NCBI GenBank assembly: GCA_964431415.1
Contig: CAYSJS010000005.1
Span: 7,132 to 71,131 of the forward strand
Source of the DNA: an uncultured Candidatus Saccharibacteria bacterium
GTDB lineage: Bacteria > Patescibacteriota > Saccharimonadia > Saccharimonadales > JACDBH01
Length of the DNA: 64,000 nucleotides
Direction: 5' to 3'
In this document: one piece after another, positions 54,479-60,649 of the stretch
Position numbering within the stretch: the first letter of the stretch is position 1
Layout of the letters: each line of letters starts with the position of its first letter
The notes under the pieces: generated by a model
Told to the model about the DNA's origin: nothing
The model's input: the letters and a program-made list of their open reading frames with translations, nothing else
The model's database searches: none
Made by a program: the position numbers and the translations under genes

Positions 54479-55153
54479 GTGAAATTAATTGAACAAATTT
54501 TTCGTTTTATTGCCCCGGATGAATGTATCCTGTGCGGTATCGAAGGGTCTCTTATCTGTAAGGAGTGTGCATCAGTGGCTTATGCCTCCCCTCCGCCCCG
54601 TTGCTATCGTTGCTATCGTGAATCTCGGGCGTACATGACGTGCTCAAACTGTCGACGGCATACTATGCTCAGAAGTGTATTTGTGTGTTCACTTTACTCA
54701 ACTAATGCGCGTGAAGTTATTCATCGTCTTAAATTTGGCTACACAAAATCGGCAAGCGAGCACATTGCGCGTAAAATGGCGGAGATTTTGCCCGAACTGC
54801 CCAGTGACACAATTATCATACACATCCCTACAGCTTCGTCACATGTGCGGGAACGAGGTTTTGACCAGTCGGCCCTTATCGCTCGGGACCTTGCTTACCT
54901 TATTCATGCACCCCACATCCATACCCTTGCCCGTCTAGGACAGCAGCGACAAGTTGGTTCGAATAGAATGCTTAGGATGACCCAGATGAAAGACGCGTTC
55001 CGAATTGTTTCAAAGGAGTTCATTGGGTCACATGTTTTGCTGGTAGATGACGTGTTGACCACCGGGTCTACACTTGAGTCGGCGGCTTTAGTACTAAAGC
55101 GTAGCGGCGCAAAAAGTGTGTCAGCAGTTGTGTTTGCGCAAGCAAAGGGGTAG
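54479..55153 (+). CDS. comFC: ComF-family protein (ComFC-type phosphoribosyltransferase-fold competence protein)
   Basis: 224 aa with GTG start. Four N-terminal Cys pairs (CILCG..CKEC...CYRCYR..CSNC) are followed by the PRTase motif VLLVDDVLTTGSTLESAA. Confidence 0.85.
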   Translation: MKLIEQIFRFIAPDECILCGIEGSLICKECASVAYASPPPRCYRCYRESRAYMTCSNCRRHTMLRSVFVCSLYSTNAREVIHRLKFGYTKSASEHIARKMAEILPELPSDTIIIHIPTASSHVRERGFDQSALIARDLAYLIHAPHIHTLARLGQQRQVGSNRMLRMTQMKDAFRIVSKEFIGSHVLLVDDVLTTGSTLESAALVLKRSGAKSVSAVVFAQAKG

Positions 55154-55167
55154 CTGCCAACTAATAA

Positions 55168-55196
55168 TTGACAAATCATTTATTAGTTGCTATAGT
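55168..55196 (+). promoter_or_regulatory. Near-consensus sigma70 promoter (TTGACA-17 nt-TATAGT)
   Basis: TTGACA at 55168-55173, a 17-nt spacer, then TATAGT at 55191-55196. The element directly abuts ATG 55197, so the real start of the downstream gene may be later (for example GTG 55203) or the mRNA may be leaderless. Confidence 0.5.
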
Positions 55197-55643
55197 ATGA
55201 TCGTGAATTACGAAAAACAAACACCAAAAATACCCGGCTTAGCAGATGCTTATAGGAATGCGTTTAATAATCCCAGTGAAGAACAGATCATTAGAGATAG
55301 AGTTAAAATGGCAAGAAAAGTTGATGGTTATGAGGCGGTATTTGATCCCGATAAAGCCATTTCAGATTTGGGTAGGCGTGCAGTTCGGGAAGCCGAAGAT
55401 GCACTTCATCCACAGCACCAACCCGCATATGAGGAGTTAGAGGGTAGTCGTTTTGACTTTCTTGACGGGGTGTCGACTGGCCCGGACCATACGATACAAG
55501 AGGGTCGCACGGCAAGAGCGCAGGCAGAGGCAAGTATAACCACCCATGGAGATGGAACCCATACGCTTGGTTGGGAAATGCAGCGAGATGTAACAGTGAA
55601 TAGTGCTGGTCAGGTAATCCAAGATCACACAAAGTCTAGGTAG
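55197..55643 (+). CDS. Hypothetical protein
   Basis: The ORF is open from 55116 but overlaps comFC. The first ATG after the comFC stop is 55197 (MIVNYEKQTPKIPG...). No motif was recognised and the start is uncertain because of the abutting promoter. Confidence 0.4.
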   Translation: MIVNYEKQTPKIPGLADAYRNAFNNPSEEQIIRDRVKMARKVDGYEAVFDPDKAISDLGRRAVREAEDALHPQHQPAYEELEGSRFDFLDGVSTGPDHTIQEGRTARAQAEASITTHGDGTHTLGWEMQRDVTVNSAGQVIQDHTKSR

Positions 55644-55885: not shown

Positions 55886-56341
55886 TTATGGTATGATGCC
55901 CTCTGGAATAGCCCGTGACATTCTTGCGAGAGACGGGCTATTTTGCTTTTCTAGACTTCTTAAAGAATCAATGGCCTTGATATCGAAGTATGTGGTTGAT
56001 CCAATGGTTTTACGCCACTTGCTAGGTGCTATAGATAAAGCAATGGAGCACCCAATTGTAGTATTCCTGGGTTTGCTTCGCTGTACTGCTTCGAAAGCAA
56101 CCCATGGCCTTCTACCAAACATCATCTGTTTATTGACTGATTGAATAAAAACATGCTCATCAGAACTTTTCAGCGGCGAAATTATCCAACTATCGACAAC
56201 TCGAGCGTTTCGCTCGCCTCTGACCATTTCTGTGTAACCAATTAAAATTCGGACAAAATCCGCGTCAGAAGTATTGTTTTTGATGAACATATGATAGCTA
56301 TCGTTTCCGATATAGTTCAGATAGACCGAGAAGTCTGTCAT
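55886..56341 (-). CDS. Hypothetical protein
   Basis: 151-aa ORF, divergent from the ParB-methylase gene. No motif was recognised. Confidence 0.45.
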   Translation of the reverse strand: MTDFSVYLNYIGNDSYHMFIKNNTSDADFVRILIGYTEMVRGERNARVVDSWIISPLKSSDEHVFIQSVNKQMMFGRRPWVAFEAVQRSKPRNTTIGCSIALSIAPSKWRKTIGSTTYFDIKAIDSLRSLEKQNSPSLARMSRAIPEGIIP

Positions 56342-56420
56342 AGCGCCTGCTACCTTAGCTTACGACCGAGTATTAGCAAAGCACGGATTTGACACCCCAA
56401 GAGCATAAGCGTAGGATGAA

Positions 56421-56438
56421 AATGTACAGCAATGTACA
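56421..56438. promoter_or_regulatory. Direct repeat AATGTACA x2 with 10-bp register; each copy contains the palindrome TGTACA (candidate operator)
   Basis: aatgtacagcaatgtaca lies in the divergent intergenic region between 55886..56341 (-) and 56667..57947 (+). Confidence 0.3.
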
Positions 56439-56514
56439 TCATTAACAATTCAAGAAACAACTACACAGTTCCGTTACGGGGTCAGAAGAAGGCCGTTTGC
56501 GAAAGCATAGAAAG

Positions 56515-56597
56515 AAGGCCGATCGTAAGGAATTGATTATAGCCGTACTTACTAAGAAGTACTGAAGCTATGATTAATTCTTTGTGATCGGCTTTTT
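56515..56597 (+). ncRNA. Long, strand-specific RNA hairpin (about 35 bp, G.U-rich) of unknown class
   Basis: Arm 56515-56543 pairs with arm 56567-56595 over 29 positions: 23 Watson-Crick and 6 G.U. All six non-WC positions are G.U only when read as plus-strand RNA. An apical 6-bp stem (gtactt/aagtac, 56545-56562) carries a 6-nt loop. The hairpin lies 70 nt upstream of the ParB-methylase ATG. Confidence 0.5.
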
Positions 56598-56666
56598 CAA
56601 TTTATAGAAAGCTTCATCACCAAGAGTTGGTGGTTAGTTCTTGCTAACTAACAAGGAGGTGAAGCT

Positions 56667-57947
56667 ATGGATGCTTCTTCAATACGTACAAACATAAAAA
56701 TCGAACAGGTGGATATAAAGCTACTGAAACCCAGCGCTTACAATCCACGAAAAATATCAGTCAAGGCTTTTGAGGACATCAAAGAAAGTCTGCGCCGCTA
56801 CGATTTGGTTGACCCCTTAATCGTAAATAACAACCCGAAGCGCAACGGGATCATCATTGGTGGCCACCAGAGATATCGGGCAGCCAAAGAGCTGGGATAT
56901 AAAACCGTGCCGGTGGTCTACATAAATCTAGATGAAGCTAGAGAAAAAGAGCTGAATTTGAGATTGAATCGCAATACGGGAGAATTTGACCTCGAACTTC
57001 TAAAGGCCTTTGACATAGATCTGCTATTGGACGTGGGGTTCGATGACACTGACCTCGCAGATATCTGGGACAACGCCCTGGAAACCGATGACGACGACTT
57101 CGACGAAGAAAAAGCAGTCAAGAAAGCAGCCGAAACCACTATAAAGCCGGGGCAGATGTTTCAGCTTGGCAGGCATAGACTGATCTGCGGCGATTCCAGC
57201 AATACAACTGTCATTAAACGCCTCGTTGGCGACAGCCAACCGAGCATCCTATATTGCGATCCACCCTTCAACATAGGGCTGGACTACAACAAAGGCGTTG
57301 GTCTCAAAGCTGGTTACGGTGGCAAGACAAGAGATAATAAGAGCGATGCTGAGTACAGGGCATTTCTTTCAAACATCTTGTCAGCAGCACTTTCAGTATT
57401 AACCACCGACTGTCATATCTTCATGTACTGCGACCAAAATTATATTGGTCTCTTGCAAAGCCTTATGGCTGAACACGGCCTCAAAAACCGACGGGTATGT
57501 TTGTGGATCAAGAATGGGTTCAATGTTGTGCCGCAAGTTGCGTTCAATAAGGCCTATGAGCCGTGCGTGTATGCTACCAGAGGTAATCCGTACCTGGCTG
57601 GCAAGAATAAGAATCTTATCGAGATTCTAAACAAGGATATAGCCGCCGGTAACCGCACCCTAGATGATATTGTCGACTTATTTGACATATGGCTGGCTAG
57701 GCGTGAACCAGGCCAGGAGTACCAGCACCCTACCCAAAAGCCAGTAACCTTGCATGAAAAACCACTGAAGCGCTGTACCAAAGTCGCAGACTATGTACTC
57801 GATGTTTTTGGCGGTTCAGGCAGCACCTTAGTTGCTTGTGAACAAATGAAGCGCACAGCGCTCCTTTGTGAGATCGAGCCAGTATTTTGTCAGGTCATCA
57901 TTGACCGCTATGAGGCTTTAACCGGCGAAAAGGCGGTACAACTATGA
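56667..57947 (+). CDS. ParB-like nuclease domain fused to a beta-class N6-adenine/N4-cytosine DNA methyltransferase
   Basis: 426 aa. The ParB N-domain reads YNPRKISVKAFEDIKESLRRYDLVDPLIVN...IIGGHQRYRAAKELG. MTase motif IV is ILYCDPPFNI and motif I is VLDVFGGSGSTLVACE. A strong RBS AAGGAGG precedes the ATG. Confidence 0.9.
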   Translation: MDASSIRTNIKIEQVDIKLLKPSAYNPRKISVKAFEDIKESLRRYDLVDPLIVNNNPKRNGIIIGGHQRYRAAKELGYKTVPVVYINLDEAREKELNLRLNRNTGEFDLELLKAFDIDLLLDVGFDDTDLADIWDNALETDDDDFDEEKAVKKAAETTIKPGQMFQLGRHRLICGDSSNTTVIKRLVGDSQPSILYCDPPFNIGLDYNKGVGLKAGYGGKTRDNKSDAEYRAFLSNILSAALSVLTTDCHIFMYCDQNYIGLLQSLMAEHGLKNRRVCLWIKNGFNVVPQVAFNKAYEPCVYATRGNPYLAGKNKNLIEILNKDIAAGNRTLDDIVDLFDIWLARREPGQEYQHPTQKPVTLHEKPLKRCTKVADYVLDVFGGSGSTLVACEQMKRTALLCEIEPVFCQVIIDRYEALTGEKAVQL

Positions 57948-58684
57948 AACCAGGACAAATAATCCAGTTGGGTCAACACAGGCTTGCTTGTGGTGACTCT
58001 AGTGATCCGGAACTTGTTAAACAGTTAATCGGAGAGAACAAGATTAGTGTAGTGCTAGTTGACCCGCCGTACGCCGTAGCAATCGTGGAGAGCAAACAAT
58101 GGCTGAAATCCAAGGATCGTCACAAGGCGATTGTAAACGATGGCTTGATGAGCGACGCTGCTTATCAAAAGTTTACTGAAGCCTGGGTCGGTGCTGTTAA
58201 GCCGCACCTGGCGTCTAAGAACAGCGTTTACATCTTCAATTCTGACAAGATGCTACTACCAACGGTACAGGCATTGAAAGCCAGCGGCGGGAAGTTTGCG
58301 CAGCTACTTATTTGGGCTAAAACTCAAGCTGTAGTGGGCCGCTTAGACTATCTACCCCAGCATGAACTCATAATCTACGGCTGGTTCGGCGCTCATAAGT
58401 TCCATAAGAGCAAAGATAAAAGCATTCTGGTGTACCCAAAGCCAAGCATCAGCAAGTTACACCCGACTATGAAGTCAGTAGGCTTGCTTCGCCGTCTCAT
58501 ACTGAATAGTTCAGACATTGACGACATAGTCTACGACTGTTTTGTAGGCAGTGGGAGCACACTACTCGCCCGTGAACAGACCAACCGGCGCTGTTTAGCC
58601 ATTGAACTAGATCCGGAGTACTGCCAAACCGTGATTGACCGATGGCAGAAATTAACTGGCCAGAAAGCTGAGGTGCTGTCATGA
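57944..58684 (+). CDS. Beta-class DNA methyltransferase (N6-A/N4-C), second copy
   Basis: 246 aa with motif IV VVLVDPPYAV and motif I VYDCFVGSGSTLLARE. ATGA overlaps on both sides. Confidence 0.9.
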   Translation: MKPGQIIQLGQHRLACGDSSDPELVKQLIGENKISVVLVDPPYAVAIVESKQWLKSKDRHKAIVNDGLMSDAAYQKFTEAWVGAVKPHLASKNSVYIFNSDKMLLPTVQALKASGGKFAQLLIWAKTQAVVGRLDYLPQHELIIYGWFGAHKFHKSKDKSILVYPKPSISKLHPTMKSVGLLRRLILNSSDIDDIVYDCFVGSGSTLLAREQTNRRCLAIELDPEYCQTVIDRWQKLTGQKAEVLS

Positions 58685-59112
58685 GCCGTAACCAGAAGAA
58701 GGACAAACAAAAACTCATAACTCAGCTACAAAAAATGCCAATCGTTGAAGTAGCTTGCAAGAATCTGAACCTACCAAGGGCTACTTACTATCGATGGCGG
58801 CAAGCTGATCCCCAGTTTGCCGCTCACTGCGATGAAGCGATTGAGCAAAGTTCAGGAATGGTCAGCGATATGGCGGAGAGCCAGTTAATCTCTGCAATTA
58901 AGGAACGTAACATGACCGCCATCATCTTTTGGCTCAAGCACCACCATCCAAAATACACCGCTAAGCTGCTACTTGAGGGTCGTATTCGTCACGAAGCTGA
59001 AGTGCTTTCTCCGGAACAGGAAGATCTAGTCATGCGGGCGCTGGTCATGGCTGGACTCCTGCCTAAGCAAACCACTAAACCGCCCGAAAAGGAGGACAAC
59101 CATGATACCTGA
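58681..59112 (+). CDS. HTH protein, phage terminase small-subunit-like
   Basis: 143 aa. The HTH-like segment is VEVACKNLNLPRATYYRWRQADPQFAAHCDEA, followed by NMTAIIFWLKHHHPKY, a pattern seen in TerS-type proteins. It lies directly upstream of TerL and overlaps it. Confidence 0.55.
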   Translation: MSRNQKKDKQKLITQLQKMPIVEVACKNLNLPRATYYRWRQADPQFAAHCDEAIEQSSGMVSDMAESQLISAIKERNMTAIIFWLKHHHPKYTAKLLLEGRIRHEAEVLSPEQEDLVMRALVMAGLLPKQTTKPPEKEDNHDT

Positions 59113-60649
59113 AGATAAGTTAAGCGATCTGGACTGGGAGCTGCTGCGCAAGCAGCGCTCCGTCCGGCTGAAGATTAGTGGTGAAAGCTTTTATTGGTTC
59201 TTTCACCTCTACTTTGGCCATTACATCAAGTATCCGACAGCTACTTTCCAGAAAGAGATCATTACCATGGCGAGTGATCCAGCAATTGAGCAGCTGGTCT
59301 TGGTTGCTTTCCGAGAAAGCGGCAAGTCAACCATCATCACTACAGCCTTGCCGCTTTGGGCGGTTACCGGACAACTACAGAAGAAATACATCGTCATCGT
59401 TTCTCAAACCCAGGCTCAGGCTCAACAACACCTGTCTAATATCAAGATGGAGCTGGAAAGCAATGATCTTATCCATAAGGACTTCTGGCCATACGATTAC
59501 GATACCAATGAGCTTGGCGTGACAGCTATAAACTTACCTAAATTTGGCGCAAGGATTATCGCCGTCTCCCGCGAGCAAGGCGTTCGTGGTTTACGGCATG
59601 GCCCACACCGCCCTGATCTCATCATTGCCGATGATGTCGAGGACAGCCGGACGGTGAAAAACAAAGAAAGTCGTGATCGTAACTTCGCCTGGTTTACTGG
59701 TGAGCTGTTACCGCTTGGCGGTGACAGCACTAAATACCTGATAGTTGGAAACCTGCTGCACGAAGATTCACTACTCATGCGCCTGAAAGCTGGTATTGAA
59801 CGTGGTGAACGTTCCGGCATCTACAAAGAATATCCGCTGGAACGTGACGGCAAAGCGTTATGGCCGGAGCGGTTTCCAGACCAAGACTCCATCAAGCGAC
59901 TAGAGCGTCGAATTGCTGATAGGATTCGCTTTGAGCGGGAGTACAGACTTCATCTTGTGCCAGACGATGAACAGATCATCACGTGGGATATGATCCGCTA
60001 CTATGACGTTCTGCCAGAATTATTACGGGGCGAAAGTCGCCAATTAGTCATTGGCGTCGATTTGGCCATTTCCGAGAAAGACGCCGCCGACTGTACCGCA
60101 CTAATAACCCTCGACATCCGTGGTTCAGATGATGACATGCGTTTTTATGTCTTACCAAACCCTATAAATACCAAGATCGGTTTTCCTGAGCAGCTGGACC
60201 TCATAAAAGAATTGAACATACAACTGAAAGGACCGAAGTTCTTCGTGGAGAGCACCGCCTACCAGGAGGCGCTAGTGCAATCCGCTAAGCGTGACACCAT
60301 AGACGTAACTGGCGTGAAACCGAGCCAGGATAAACGTACCCGGCTGAACATGATTGCTAACAAGATCCAACGAGGTATGATTCTCTTTCCGCAACACGGT
60401 TGCAAAGATTTGCTAACGCAGCTGGTGGGTTTTGGTATTGAAAAGCACGATGACCTAGTGGATGCCCTGACAATTGCCGTGATTGAAGCAGTGAGATCGG
60501 ATATTACGACTCCAAGAATGTGGATTGGTACACATAACTTCTGGAAAGATCCGGTATCCTTGACCACAAGTAGACAAAGACAAGGTCGAAGTTACTGGAG
60601 CCGCAGACTAGACGATTGGGAAGAAGCGACATCGGGTGAGTGGGATTAA
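59102..60649 (+). CDS. Phage terminase large subunit
   Basis: 515 aa. Walker A AFRESGKST and Walker B DLIIADDVED. The C-terminal RNase-H-like nuclease has VIGVDLAISEKDAADCTAL and KHDDLVDALTIAV. Confidence 0.85.
   Translation: MIPEDKLSDLDWELLRKQRSVRLKISGESFYWFFHLYFGHYIKYPTATFQKEIITMASDPAIEQLVLVAFRESGKSTIITTALPLWAVTGQLQKKYIVIVSQTQAQAQQHLSNIKMELESNDLIHKDFWPYDYDTNELGVTAINLPKFGARIIAVSREQGVRGLRHGPHRPDLIIADDVEDSRTVKNKESRDRNFAWFTGELLPLGGDSTKYLIVGNLLHEDSLLMRLKAGIERGERSGIYKEYPLERDGKALWPERFPDQDSIKRLERRIADRIRFEREYRLHLVPDDEQIITWDMIRYYDVLPELLRGESRQLVIGVDLAISEKDAADCTALITLDIRGSDDDMRFYVLPNPINTKIGFPEQLDLIKELNIQLKGPKFFVESTAYQEALVQSAKRDTIDVTGVKPSQDKRTRLNMIANKIQRGMILFPQHGCKDLLTQLVGFGIEKHDDLVDALTIAVIEAVRSDITTPRMWIGTHNFWKDPVSLTTSRQRQGRSYWSRRLDDWEEATSGEWD

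Follow-up and report, generated by a model that had tools for sequence, protein, structure and literature searches.

What role does a long, G·U-rich hairpin play in front of four phage-type genes in a Saccharibacteria chromosome? The question arises from a 64,000-nt stretch of contig CAYSJS010000005.1 (positions 7,132 to 71,131; assembly GCA_964431415.1) of an uncultured Candidatus Saccharibacteria bacterium, hereafter called the window. The hairpin is located in a 325-bp gap separating two diverging genes, upstream of a gene encoding a ParB_N/N6_N4 methyltransferase (here called ParB-methylase), which is followed by genes for a second methylase, TerS and the large terminase TerL. We found that the hairpin is part of a ~245-nt leader and consider it probable that it constitutes the terminator stem of a default-off cis-regulatory 5′ leader (attenuator) of this ParB-methylase / methylase / TerS / TerL operon.

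The long G·U-rich hairpin was confirmed as a conserved structure at the RNA level. Its 29-nt arms (56515-56543 and 56567-56595) pair at all 29 positions, with 23 Watson-Crick and six G·T pairs (79% Watson-Crick according to the repeat finder), as the initial annotation of this DNA had described. Two extra basal pairs extend them to a lower stem of 31 bp (56513-56543 with 56567-56597) with seven G·U pairs and no mismatch. The apical 6-bp stem described earlier is present, too (56545-50 with 56557-62, loop ACUAAG); between it and the lower stem lies an asymmetric internal loop (1 x 4), and the two stems together give a rod of 37 bp. Folding by RNAfold, a check proposed at that stage, returned a single plus-strand rod with a minimum free energy (MFE) of -45 kcal/mol (z = -8.3; 0 of 200 dinucleotide shuffles were as stable). 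The corresponding values were -26.6 kcal/mol and z = -5.0 for the reverse complement, on which the lower-stem G·U pairs, seven in number with six inside the 29-bp arms, become A·C mismatches. If strand-neutral transitions had accumulated in a decaying DNA palindrome, the chance of finding all seven wobbles on one strand would be about 2 x (1/2)^7 = 0.016. Among 12,782 overlapping 100-nt windows from both strands of the 64 kb, the hairpin ranked third lowest in MFE; near the top of this list it is the sole single uninterrupted rod, and it is AT-rich. No second copy was found within the window.

Is this structure conserved elsewhere? GTDB species genomes and JGI metagenomes held ParB-methylase relatives of at most 75% identity; intermediates at 92%, 85%, 84% and lower came from a large protein database, and their contigs were then fetched. 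Eight further metagenomic loci carry a homologous leader (L168, L157-160, L161, L167, L102, L169-172, L175 and L176), giving nine leaders in all from about five lineages. They sit only directly upstream of the ParB-methylase start, in front of the same cassette each time. BLAST of the intergenic region against 153 GTDB/JGI loci gave L102 as sole match, and BLAST of the nine leaders against 177 loci revealed no additional leaders and matches at the homologous position only. The Rfam search suggested by the initial annotation yielded no family: at the gathering threshold of Rfam 15 neither the window nor the eight leader loci matched, and permissive settings gave chance-level matches to miRNA families at E >= 0.7. 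Likewise, nothing useful came from DNA similarity to 50,697 phage records or from scanning viral contigs for exact patterns of the leader boxes, and the seven ParB-methylase relatives detected in viral contigs are all distant and have no leader. Our literature search on the cassette or leader in Saccharibacteria found nothing useful. The leader is most likely a conserved, previously uncatalogued regulatory RNA without an Rfam family.

All nine leaders share the same order of parts: promoter, small 5′ hairpin, single-stranded boxes, large hairpin, U-run and a helix sequestering the Shine-Dalgarno sequence (SD). The promoter, of the form TTGAC(A/G/T), 17-18 nt, TAnnnT, keeps the same distance from the leader elements in 9/9; in the window it lies ~95 nt upstream of the hairpin, and predicts a transcription start at ~56423-56424. 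The small 5′ hairpin begins ~7 nt past the -10 element, and its stem covaries between lineages (window GUACA/UGUAC, L168 GCACA/UGUGC, L157 GCAC/GUGC, L161 GCACC/GGGUGC, L102 AGUAC/GUACU). It is followed by two conserved boxes, box A with UUAACAAUU(C/U) and box B with CACA(G/A)UUC. Within the large hairpin, the sequence of the middle helix is kept (GAAUUG(G/A)U(C/U)A with UGAUUAAUUC), and those of the basal and apical helices change wholly between lineages without loss of pairing. Basal helices read GCCGAUC/GAUCGGC, CUGCGCC/GGCGCAG, GAGCGCC/GGUGCUU, AAUCACC/GGUGAUU and GCGUCGA/UCGGCGC, all of them paired. The large hairpin is a rod in the window, L168, L169 and L175; an extra arm of ~45 nt creates a three-way junction with conserved nucleotides in L157, L161, L167 and L102. 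UUUUU(U) follows right after the basal helix in six of the nine leaders (window, L168, L102, L169, L175, L176). At the downstream end, the anti-SD and SD segments pair in different sequences as well: AGCUUCAUCACC with GGAGGUGAAGCU in the window, CUUCGCCUUC with GGAGGUGAAG in L157, CCUCCA with UGGAGG in L169. Partition-function folding gave a probability of 0.21 for the window SD to be unpaired, and 0-0.24 over all nine leaders.

We quantified the covariation in an alignment (A4) of six leaders from three or four independent lineages, with apical inserts masked with N. Of the cells belonging to the 37 window pairs, 88.7% are paired, and 14 of the 37 pairs changed on both sides, a number matched by 0 of 500 column shuffles. 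The covariation score was 0.474 compared with 0.20 for shuffles (0/500 reached it), and sliding the partner columns by 1-3 lowered pairing to 36-52% and the score to 0.04-0.20. A compact example is L168, in which the apical stem GUACUU/AAGUAC is swapped for GCUC/GGGC and the loop ACUAAG is retained. The nine homologous hairpins contain 2-8 G·U pairs each and a single A·C mismatch in total, and in five of them (window, L168, L102, L169, L175) the plus strand is 10-20 kcal/mol more stable than the minus strand. Between the window and L168 the leader is ~90-91% identical, compared with 61-77% for the adjoining ParB-methylase coding sequence, which is the reverse of what would be expected for an unconstrained spacer. 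Together, the comparison supports selection on the plus-strand RNA structure, the interpretation offered by the initial annotation in preference to a DNA palindrome; it had named a lack of conservation or covariation at homologous loci as grounds for abandoning the idea, and both are present among the homologous leaders.

What would such an RNA do? A sequence-variable helix always closes immediately before the U-run, downstream of a conserved promoter, and therefore carries the signature of an intrinsic terminator. In the window, UUUUU (56593-97) comes directly after the GC-rich base (GGCCGAUC with GAUCGGC) of the -45 kcal/mol hairpin; six of the nine leaders have a U-run and the other three a U-rich tail. 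The hairpin was at first held not to be a classical intrinsic terminator, as the T-run is itself paired and no plus-strand gene lies upstream. The pairing of 56593-56597 with AGAAG is indeed there in the window, yet it is specific to the window/L168 lineage, the upstream A-rich stretch missing in the other lineages, and every homologous leader has a basal helix followed by a U-run or U-rich tail. The lack of an upstream gene is equally true but beside the point, since the hairpin has its own promoter and it is the leader itself that would be terminated. The hairpin thus stands between a promoter-like sequence (56389-56417, with a counterpart in 9/9 leaders) and the first gene of the operon. 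No conserved promoter was seen in the ~55-60 nt between U-run and SD, which are occupied by the anti-SD helix; therefore, the operon mRNA would have to come from read-through, which would make the leader an attenuator.

The course of events that these parts suggest is as follows. Transcription would start at the sigma70-type promoter, and the nascent RNA would fold into the small 5′ hairpin, two single-stranded boxes and then the 37-bp hairpin. Most polymerases would stop at ~56597-56600, at UUUUU after the GC-rich base, and release a leader RNA of ~175 nt. In the transcripts that read through, the SD would still be paired with the anti-SD segment, and the cassette would be locked at two levels. 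Expression would then require a factor that defeats the terminator, for which we infer two candidate routes.

In the first, a factor would stabilise a helix that joins box B (CAGUUCC..UUACGG) to the central part of the 5′ arm (UCGUAA-GGAAUUG). When the nascent RNA was folded up to the apical loop, CAGUUCC-G-UUACGG (56466-56479) paired with UCGUAA-GGAAUUG (56523-56535), and the GGCC of the upstream repeat (56486-95) also pairs with the basal GGCC; this repeat contributes to the best duplex formed with the 5′ arm. For the window, the duplex between the box B region and the 5′ arm reaches -21.2 kcal/mol, a value attained by 3/300 shuffles; it beat shuffles in four of the nine leaders (the window, L168 with 0/300, L102 with 8/300 and L176 with 14/300). 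Beyond an invariant 6-bp core (CA(G/A)UUC with GAAUUG), the lineages have complementary extensions of their own: UUACGG/UCGUAA, UG/CG, CGG/CCG and UCGA/UCGA. With the 5′ arm unavailable, folding showed an alternative pairing of the terminator 3′ arm with the stretch of ~56606-56631 around the anti-SD: once the box B helix was enforced, the window 3′ arm paired with this segment just downstream and the SD opened. In the window lineage, the freed 3′ arm may thus capture the anti-SD segment and expose the ribosome-binding site, a four-segment relay that we infer to be reminiscent of classical attenuators. The predicted ON conformer has -68.3 kcal/mol compared with -81.7 for the OFF (terminator) conformer, leaving the terminator dominant by ~13 kcal/mol.

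The second candidate route would be processive antitermination by Nus factors or an N-like protein, nucleated on the boxA-like element. The boxA consensus is UGCUCUUUA in rrn operons and CGCUCUUA in lambda, and box A of L157 nearly agrees with it. In L161 and L167, box A reads UGCGCUUUAACAAUUCA, a 15/17 match to the rrn boxA plus spacer of E. coli, UGCUCUUUAACAAUUUA (PMC2724277). At two mismatches or fewer, this rrn-type 17-mer occurs three times in the 2.7 Mb searched, and two of the three are the L161 and L167 leaders. An extension of this route would make the leader a new class of phage-responsive switch, in which a stand-alone chromosomal terminase/methylase cassette, silenced by the long terminator and the SD lock, is turned on only by the N/Q-like antitermination of an infecting phage at a nut-like boxA/hairpin. 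We regard this as unlikely. If true, the cassette, whether of the host or of a satellite, would interfere with phage packaging at the proper time by hijacking or sabotaging it, and leaders with a junction and with a rod would belong together in a new RNA family confined to the Candidate Phyla Radiation (CPR)/Patescibacteria.

Several points weigh against an attenuator of this kind. Usual intrinsic terminators have a stem of ~5-14 bp and a loop of 3-8 nt; the 37-bp stem far exceeds this, the geometry, with its asymmetric internal loop, is not compact, and the hairpin went unflagged in a scan for consensus terminators. Because of the stem length and the missing call, we treat termination at the hairpin as strongly suggested only. 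In L157, L161 and L167, the proximal U-tract is interrupted and the tail reads U(A/G)UGUUUAUUUU. The antiterminator duplex was no better than shuffles in five of the nine leaders (L157, L161, L167, L169, L175), and only in the window, L168 and L102 did the ON state release the SD. Box A of the window, ACAUCAUUAACAAUUCA, is degenerate; as it matches the E. coli rrn sequence at 12/17 positions only and lacks the 5′ UGC, the boxA lead is weaker for the window. Only about five independent lineages stand behind the comparison of leaders, and the register of A4, on which the covariation figures depend, was anchored by hand on the conserved middle helix with N padding, as MAFFT alone misaligned rod against junction types. 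Finally, leaders are entirely missing from the cassettes that come next after L157 and L161 in protein identity (83-84%).

Some of the same observations could be explained without an attenuator. An uninterrupted duplex of more than 20 bp is a classical substrate of RNase III, and the 31 bp of uninterrupted double-stranded RNA in the window and L168 exceed the required length of ~20 bp; the hairpin might then be a processing or stability element in a long 5′ untranslated region, cleaved to mature or destabilise the mRNA, without any termination. We give this a low probability, since the stem is broken by internal loops and the three-way junction in other lineages and the conserved U-run directly past a covarying basal helix would be left unexplained. 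Cleavage by RNase III could possibly coexist with termination as an additional property. Somewhat less probable is an independent small RNA gene, whose ~175-nt transcript (56424 to ~56600) would act in trans, with the hairpin as a mere terminator or stability module and the operon expressed from elsewhere. Promoter and terminator do delimit a unit of this length with conserved single-stranded boxes, and conservation is higher in the leader than in the coding sequence beside it. However, the promoter that the operon would then need between U-run and SD was not seen in conserved form, the fixed distance to the ParB-methylase start is always kept, the conserved anti-SD/SD helix ties the leader to this gene, and no target complementarity was identified.

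The mutually exclusive helices (0:1 / 1:2 / 2:3 / 3:4) resemble the expression platform of a riboswitch, and the three-way junction of L157, L161, L167 and L102 contains conserved nucleotides, which raises the question whether the hairpin together with the relatives' extra arm could be a ligand-sensing aptamer choosing between terminator and antiterminator. This is very improbable: the arm with the conserved junction is absent from the window, L168, L169 and L175, the window has a plain rod without a pocket-like junction, Rfam gave no match and the controlled genes have no metabolic logic. Least probable of all, and hardly credible in our view, is an element recognised as inverted repeat in the DNA (an operator or cruciform, pac or cos site, recombination site or element end). 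The position at the edge of a phage-derived cassette beside terminase genes and the sequence-conserved half-sites GAATTG...AATTC would suit it. Against it, all 6-7 non-Watson-Crick positions are G·T on the plus strand and hence A·C on the other, the half-site spacing ranges from 29 to ~90-120 bp, the helices covary through G·U intermediates, and the element is present in a single copy in the window without a match in the phage database. We also considered and rejected further candidates. For a type I toxin-antitoxin or antisense RNA, the region offers only non-conserved open reading frames (ORFs) of 22-36 aa without SD, and no evidence supports the antitoxin-type or phage packaging RNA roles floated in the initial annotation. 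A repeated extragenic palindrome or miniature inverted-repeat transposable element was dismissed on account of the single copy in the window and the occurrence elsewhere at the homologous position only. An Frpo-like single-stranded-DNA promoter of a conjugative leading region does not fit the syntenic chromosomal site, and the wobbles favour the coding-sense strand over the template.

Compared with known systems, the attenuator arrangement has its closest parallels in lambda. PL-nutL-tL1, PR-nutR-tR1 and the late PR′-tR′ likewise combine a constitutive-looking promoter, a short leader with a boxA-like element and hairpin, and an intrinsic terminator to be overridden before expression of phage genes (here methylases and terminase). 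The lambda 6S RNA from PR′-tR′ has ~194 nt, and the predicted terminated product of ~175 nt is comparable in size. Leader box B resembles the lambda nutR spacer CACAUUCCA. Unlike in lambda, the leader has no identified N or Q homologue, and the loop of its 5′ hairpin is not conserved and hence not like an N-binding boxB; furthermore, the window boxA is degenerate, the terminator has 37 bp, the SD-sequestering helix adds a translational lock, and the cassette is chromosomal, with the rest of the phage missing. The rrn leader antiterminator (boxB hairpin, boxA, boxC; NusB-NusE/NusA) has the same order of hairpin, then boxA, and it is this element that L161 and L167 match so closely, but the rrn system mainly counters Rho-dependent termination and has no strong intrinsic terminator behind it. 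Mutually exclusive helices, with an upstream segment pairing the 5′ half of the terminator, are found as well in segments 1-4 of the trp leader and in the overlap of ribonucleic antiterminator (RAT) and terminator recognised by BglG/SacY; unlike these, the leader has neither a conserved leader peptide nor a nearby antiterminator protein, and its terminator is dominant by the margin given above. With Rho-independent terminators in general it shares the GC-rich helix closed directly before the U-run and conserved across lineages, and it differs from ordinary ones in its 37-bp stem, the 5′ leader position behind its own promoter and the optional three-way junction in some relatives. We regard it as a 5′ leader built around a probable terminator and set apart by an exceptionally long stem, a three-way junction in some of its members and a translational lock on top. 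To our knowledge, very few cis-regulatory RNAs have been described for Saccharibacteria or other CPR bacteria. The leader provides a concrete, testable example of gene control in organisms that are hard to culture, with a promoter, a nut-like box, an unusually long terminator and a lock on the ribosome-binding site.

Table 1. Features of the leader, the downstream cassette and the compared flanking regions (window coordinates unless a locus is named).
Feature	Position	Strand	Details and evidence
Sigma70-like promoter	56389..56417	+	TTGACA (56389-94), 17-nt spacer, TAGGAT (56412-17); consensus scan, 10/12 matches
Small 5′-terminal hairpin	56424..56437	+	GUACA-gcaa-UGUAC; full-leader fold; covaries across lineages
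Box A, boxA-like	56436..56452	+	core UUAACAAUUC (56442-51); conserved in window, L168, L157, L161, L167, L102
Box B and UUACGG, 5′ strand of candidate antiterminator	56460..56479	+	ACUACACAGUUC; pairs with 56523-56535 in nascent-transcript fold
Upstream copy of AAGAAGGCCG	56486..56495	+	direct repeat of 56512-56521; repeat finder; GGCC can pair with GGCC at terminator base
Long hairpin, read as terminator stem	56513..56597	+	basal GC-rich helix GGCCGAUC/GAUCGGC, U-run 56593-97; sequence, RNAfold, repeat finder, covariation
Anti-SD segment	56610..56621	+	AGCUUCAUCACC; can pair with SD; inverted repeat and full-leader fold
SD and start codon of ParB-methylase gene	56654..56669	+	AGGAGGUG, AUG 56667; sequence, ORF, domain matches
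ParB_N + N6_N4 methyltransferase	56667-57947	+	Pfam, PHROG matches
Second methyltransferase	57944-58684	+	Pfam, PHROG matches
TerS-like helix-turn-helix protein	58681-59112	+	Pfam, PHROG matches
TerL, large terminase	59102-60649	+	phrog_38, E = 3e-74
151-aa ORF left of gap	55886-56341	-	no family match
Left-slot regions compared	window 55886-56341; L157 1-2509; L161 1-2627; L170 1259-1648; L175 1-2240; L176 1-2206		

Some further features of the leader region (Table 1) deserve mention. The promoter spacer AGCATAAGCG (window 56395-56423) is kept in five of the nine leaders, which are otherwise diverged, and a second -10-like hexamer (GAAAAT / TAAAAT) stands directly past the -10 element; they may represent the site of a regulator or serve in promoter-proximal pausing. 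An ORF of 34 aa (56432-56536, plus strand) runs from the 5′ hairpin through both boxes to a UGA inside the GAAUUGA of the terminator arm. It is probably untranslated, because it has no SD and its frame is not conserved in L157, where the frame across the boxes differs, and we rejected it as a leader peptide. The 3′ end of the hairpin lies 70 nt from the AUG. Both small hairpins that the initial annotation placed before the ribosome-binding site are there (CACCAA/TTGGTG, 56618-56632; GTTAGTT/AACTAAC, 56633-56652), of which the second is probably incidental and not under selection, because two of its seven pairs are lost in the close relative L168.

The operon (56667..60649, plus strand) is directly followed by a convergent ADP-ribosylglycohydrolase gene; therefore, only four phage-type genes are present. 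As first proposed, the element does mark the left edge of a phage-derived module: the regulatory leader abuts the ParB-methylase / methylase / TerS / TerL cassette. More than 100 loci show the four-gene order, most of them in metagenome-assembled genomes of Saccharibacteria and other Patescibacteria, which makes it very likely that the window comes from a Saccharimonadales genome. Behind TerL, 12 of 33 non-redundant loci have a portal-sized ORF in the same direction, and another 12 have a convergent gene as in the window. In the window lineage the four genes stand alone at a syntenic chromosomal site (type IV secretion system pilin, HSP20, ComF-like ... ADP-ribosylglycohydrolase). The leader thereby draws attention to a widespread cassette that in the window lineage stands by itself beside a variable slot of defence genes; how it is switched on would tell its purpose, whether satellite-like, in defence or in gene transfer.

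The slot left of the leader holds different genes in each genome, mostly divergent and defence-like: SMODS+SLATT (resembling a cyclic-oligonucleotide-based antiphage signalling system), a DEAD/ResIII helicase, a PIN protein, DUF2779+FtsK, type I restriction-modification HsdS/HsdM and the unannotated 151-aa protein. PADLOC and NCBIfam, used in search of a known defence system, gave nothing for the neighbours of 151 and 175 aa and only generic methyltransferase matches for the cassette. No regulator gene is consistently adjacent across the loci, the genes upstream of the leader varying by genome, and neither a CAT/PRD-type or other antiterminator protein near the cassette nor an N or Q homologue was identified. 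In front of the cassette stands one of two alternatives that exclude each other: the structured leader, which brings a promoter of its own, or a co-directional gene of 170-175 aa (C-terminus ...RRAKEKSSR), which abuts the ParB-methylase gene with a gap of ~80 nt (L162-L166, L173). A homologue of this gene is absent from the window; the 175-aa ORF at 55116-55643, considered as a nearby trans-acting factor, is not homologous to it and was rejected. The alternation of front ends fits the leader as supplier of an autonomous, gated promoter.

Whether a leader is a rod or has a three-way junction does not track the protein identity of ParB-methylase. The 92% relative is of the junction type, and a relative with 67% identity carries a rod leader 91% identical to that of the window (window 56374-57947 compared with L168); leader and 5′ end of the gene appear to be exchanged together by recombination, as one module. 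In more distant, phage-type loci (L016-L021, L031, L039, L041, L048, L050-L052, L059, L063, L092), the ParB-methylase gene is often preceded by an inner terminator of A-tract, hairpin and T-tract that a longer inverted repeat (-30 to -50 kcal/mol) encloses. Upstream of ParB-methylase, strong terminator-like hairpins were found on the plus strand in 28 of 118 unique loci, compared with 14/118 on the minus strand. Within 200 nt upstream of ParB-methylase, a DnaA-box-like sequence, TTATCCACA, occurs with at most one mismatch in 16 of the 118 unique upstream regions (L007, L022, L024, L027, L029, L041, L050, L086, L088, L107 and others), compared with 6.8 expected from shuffles (maximum 12), and is exact in L022 and L024.

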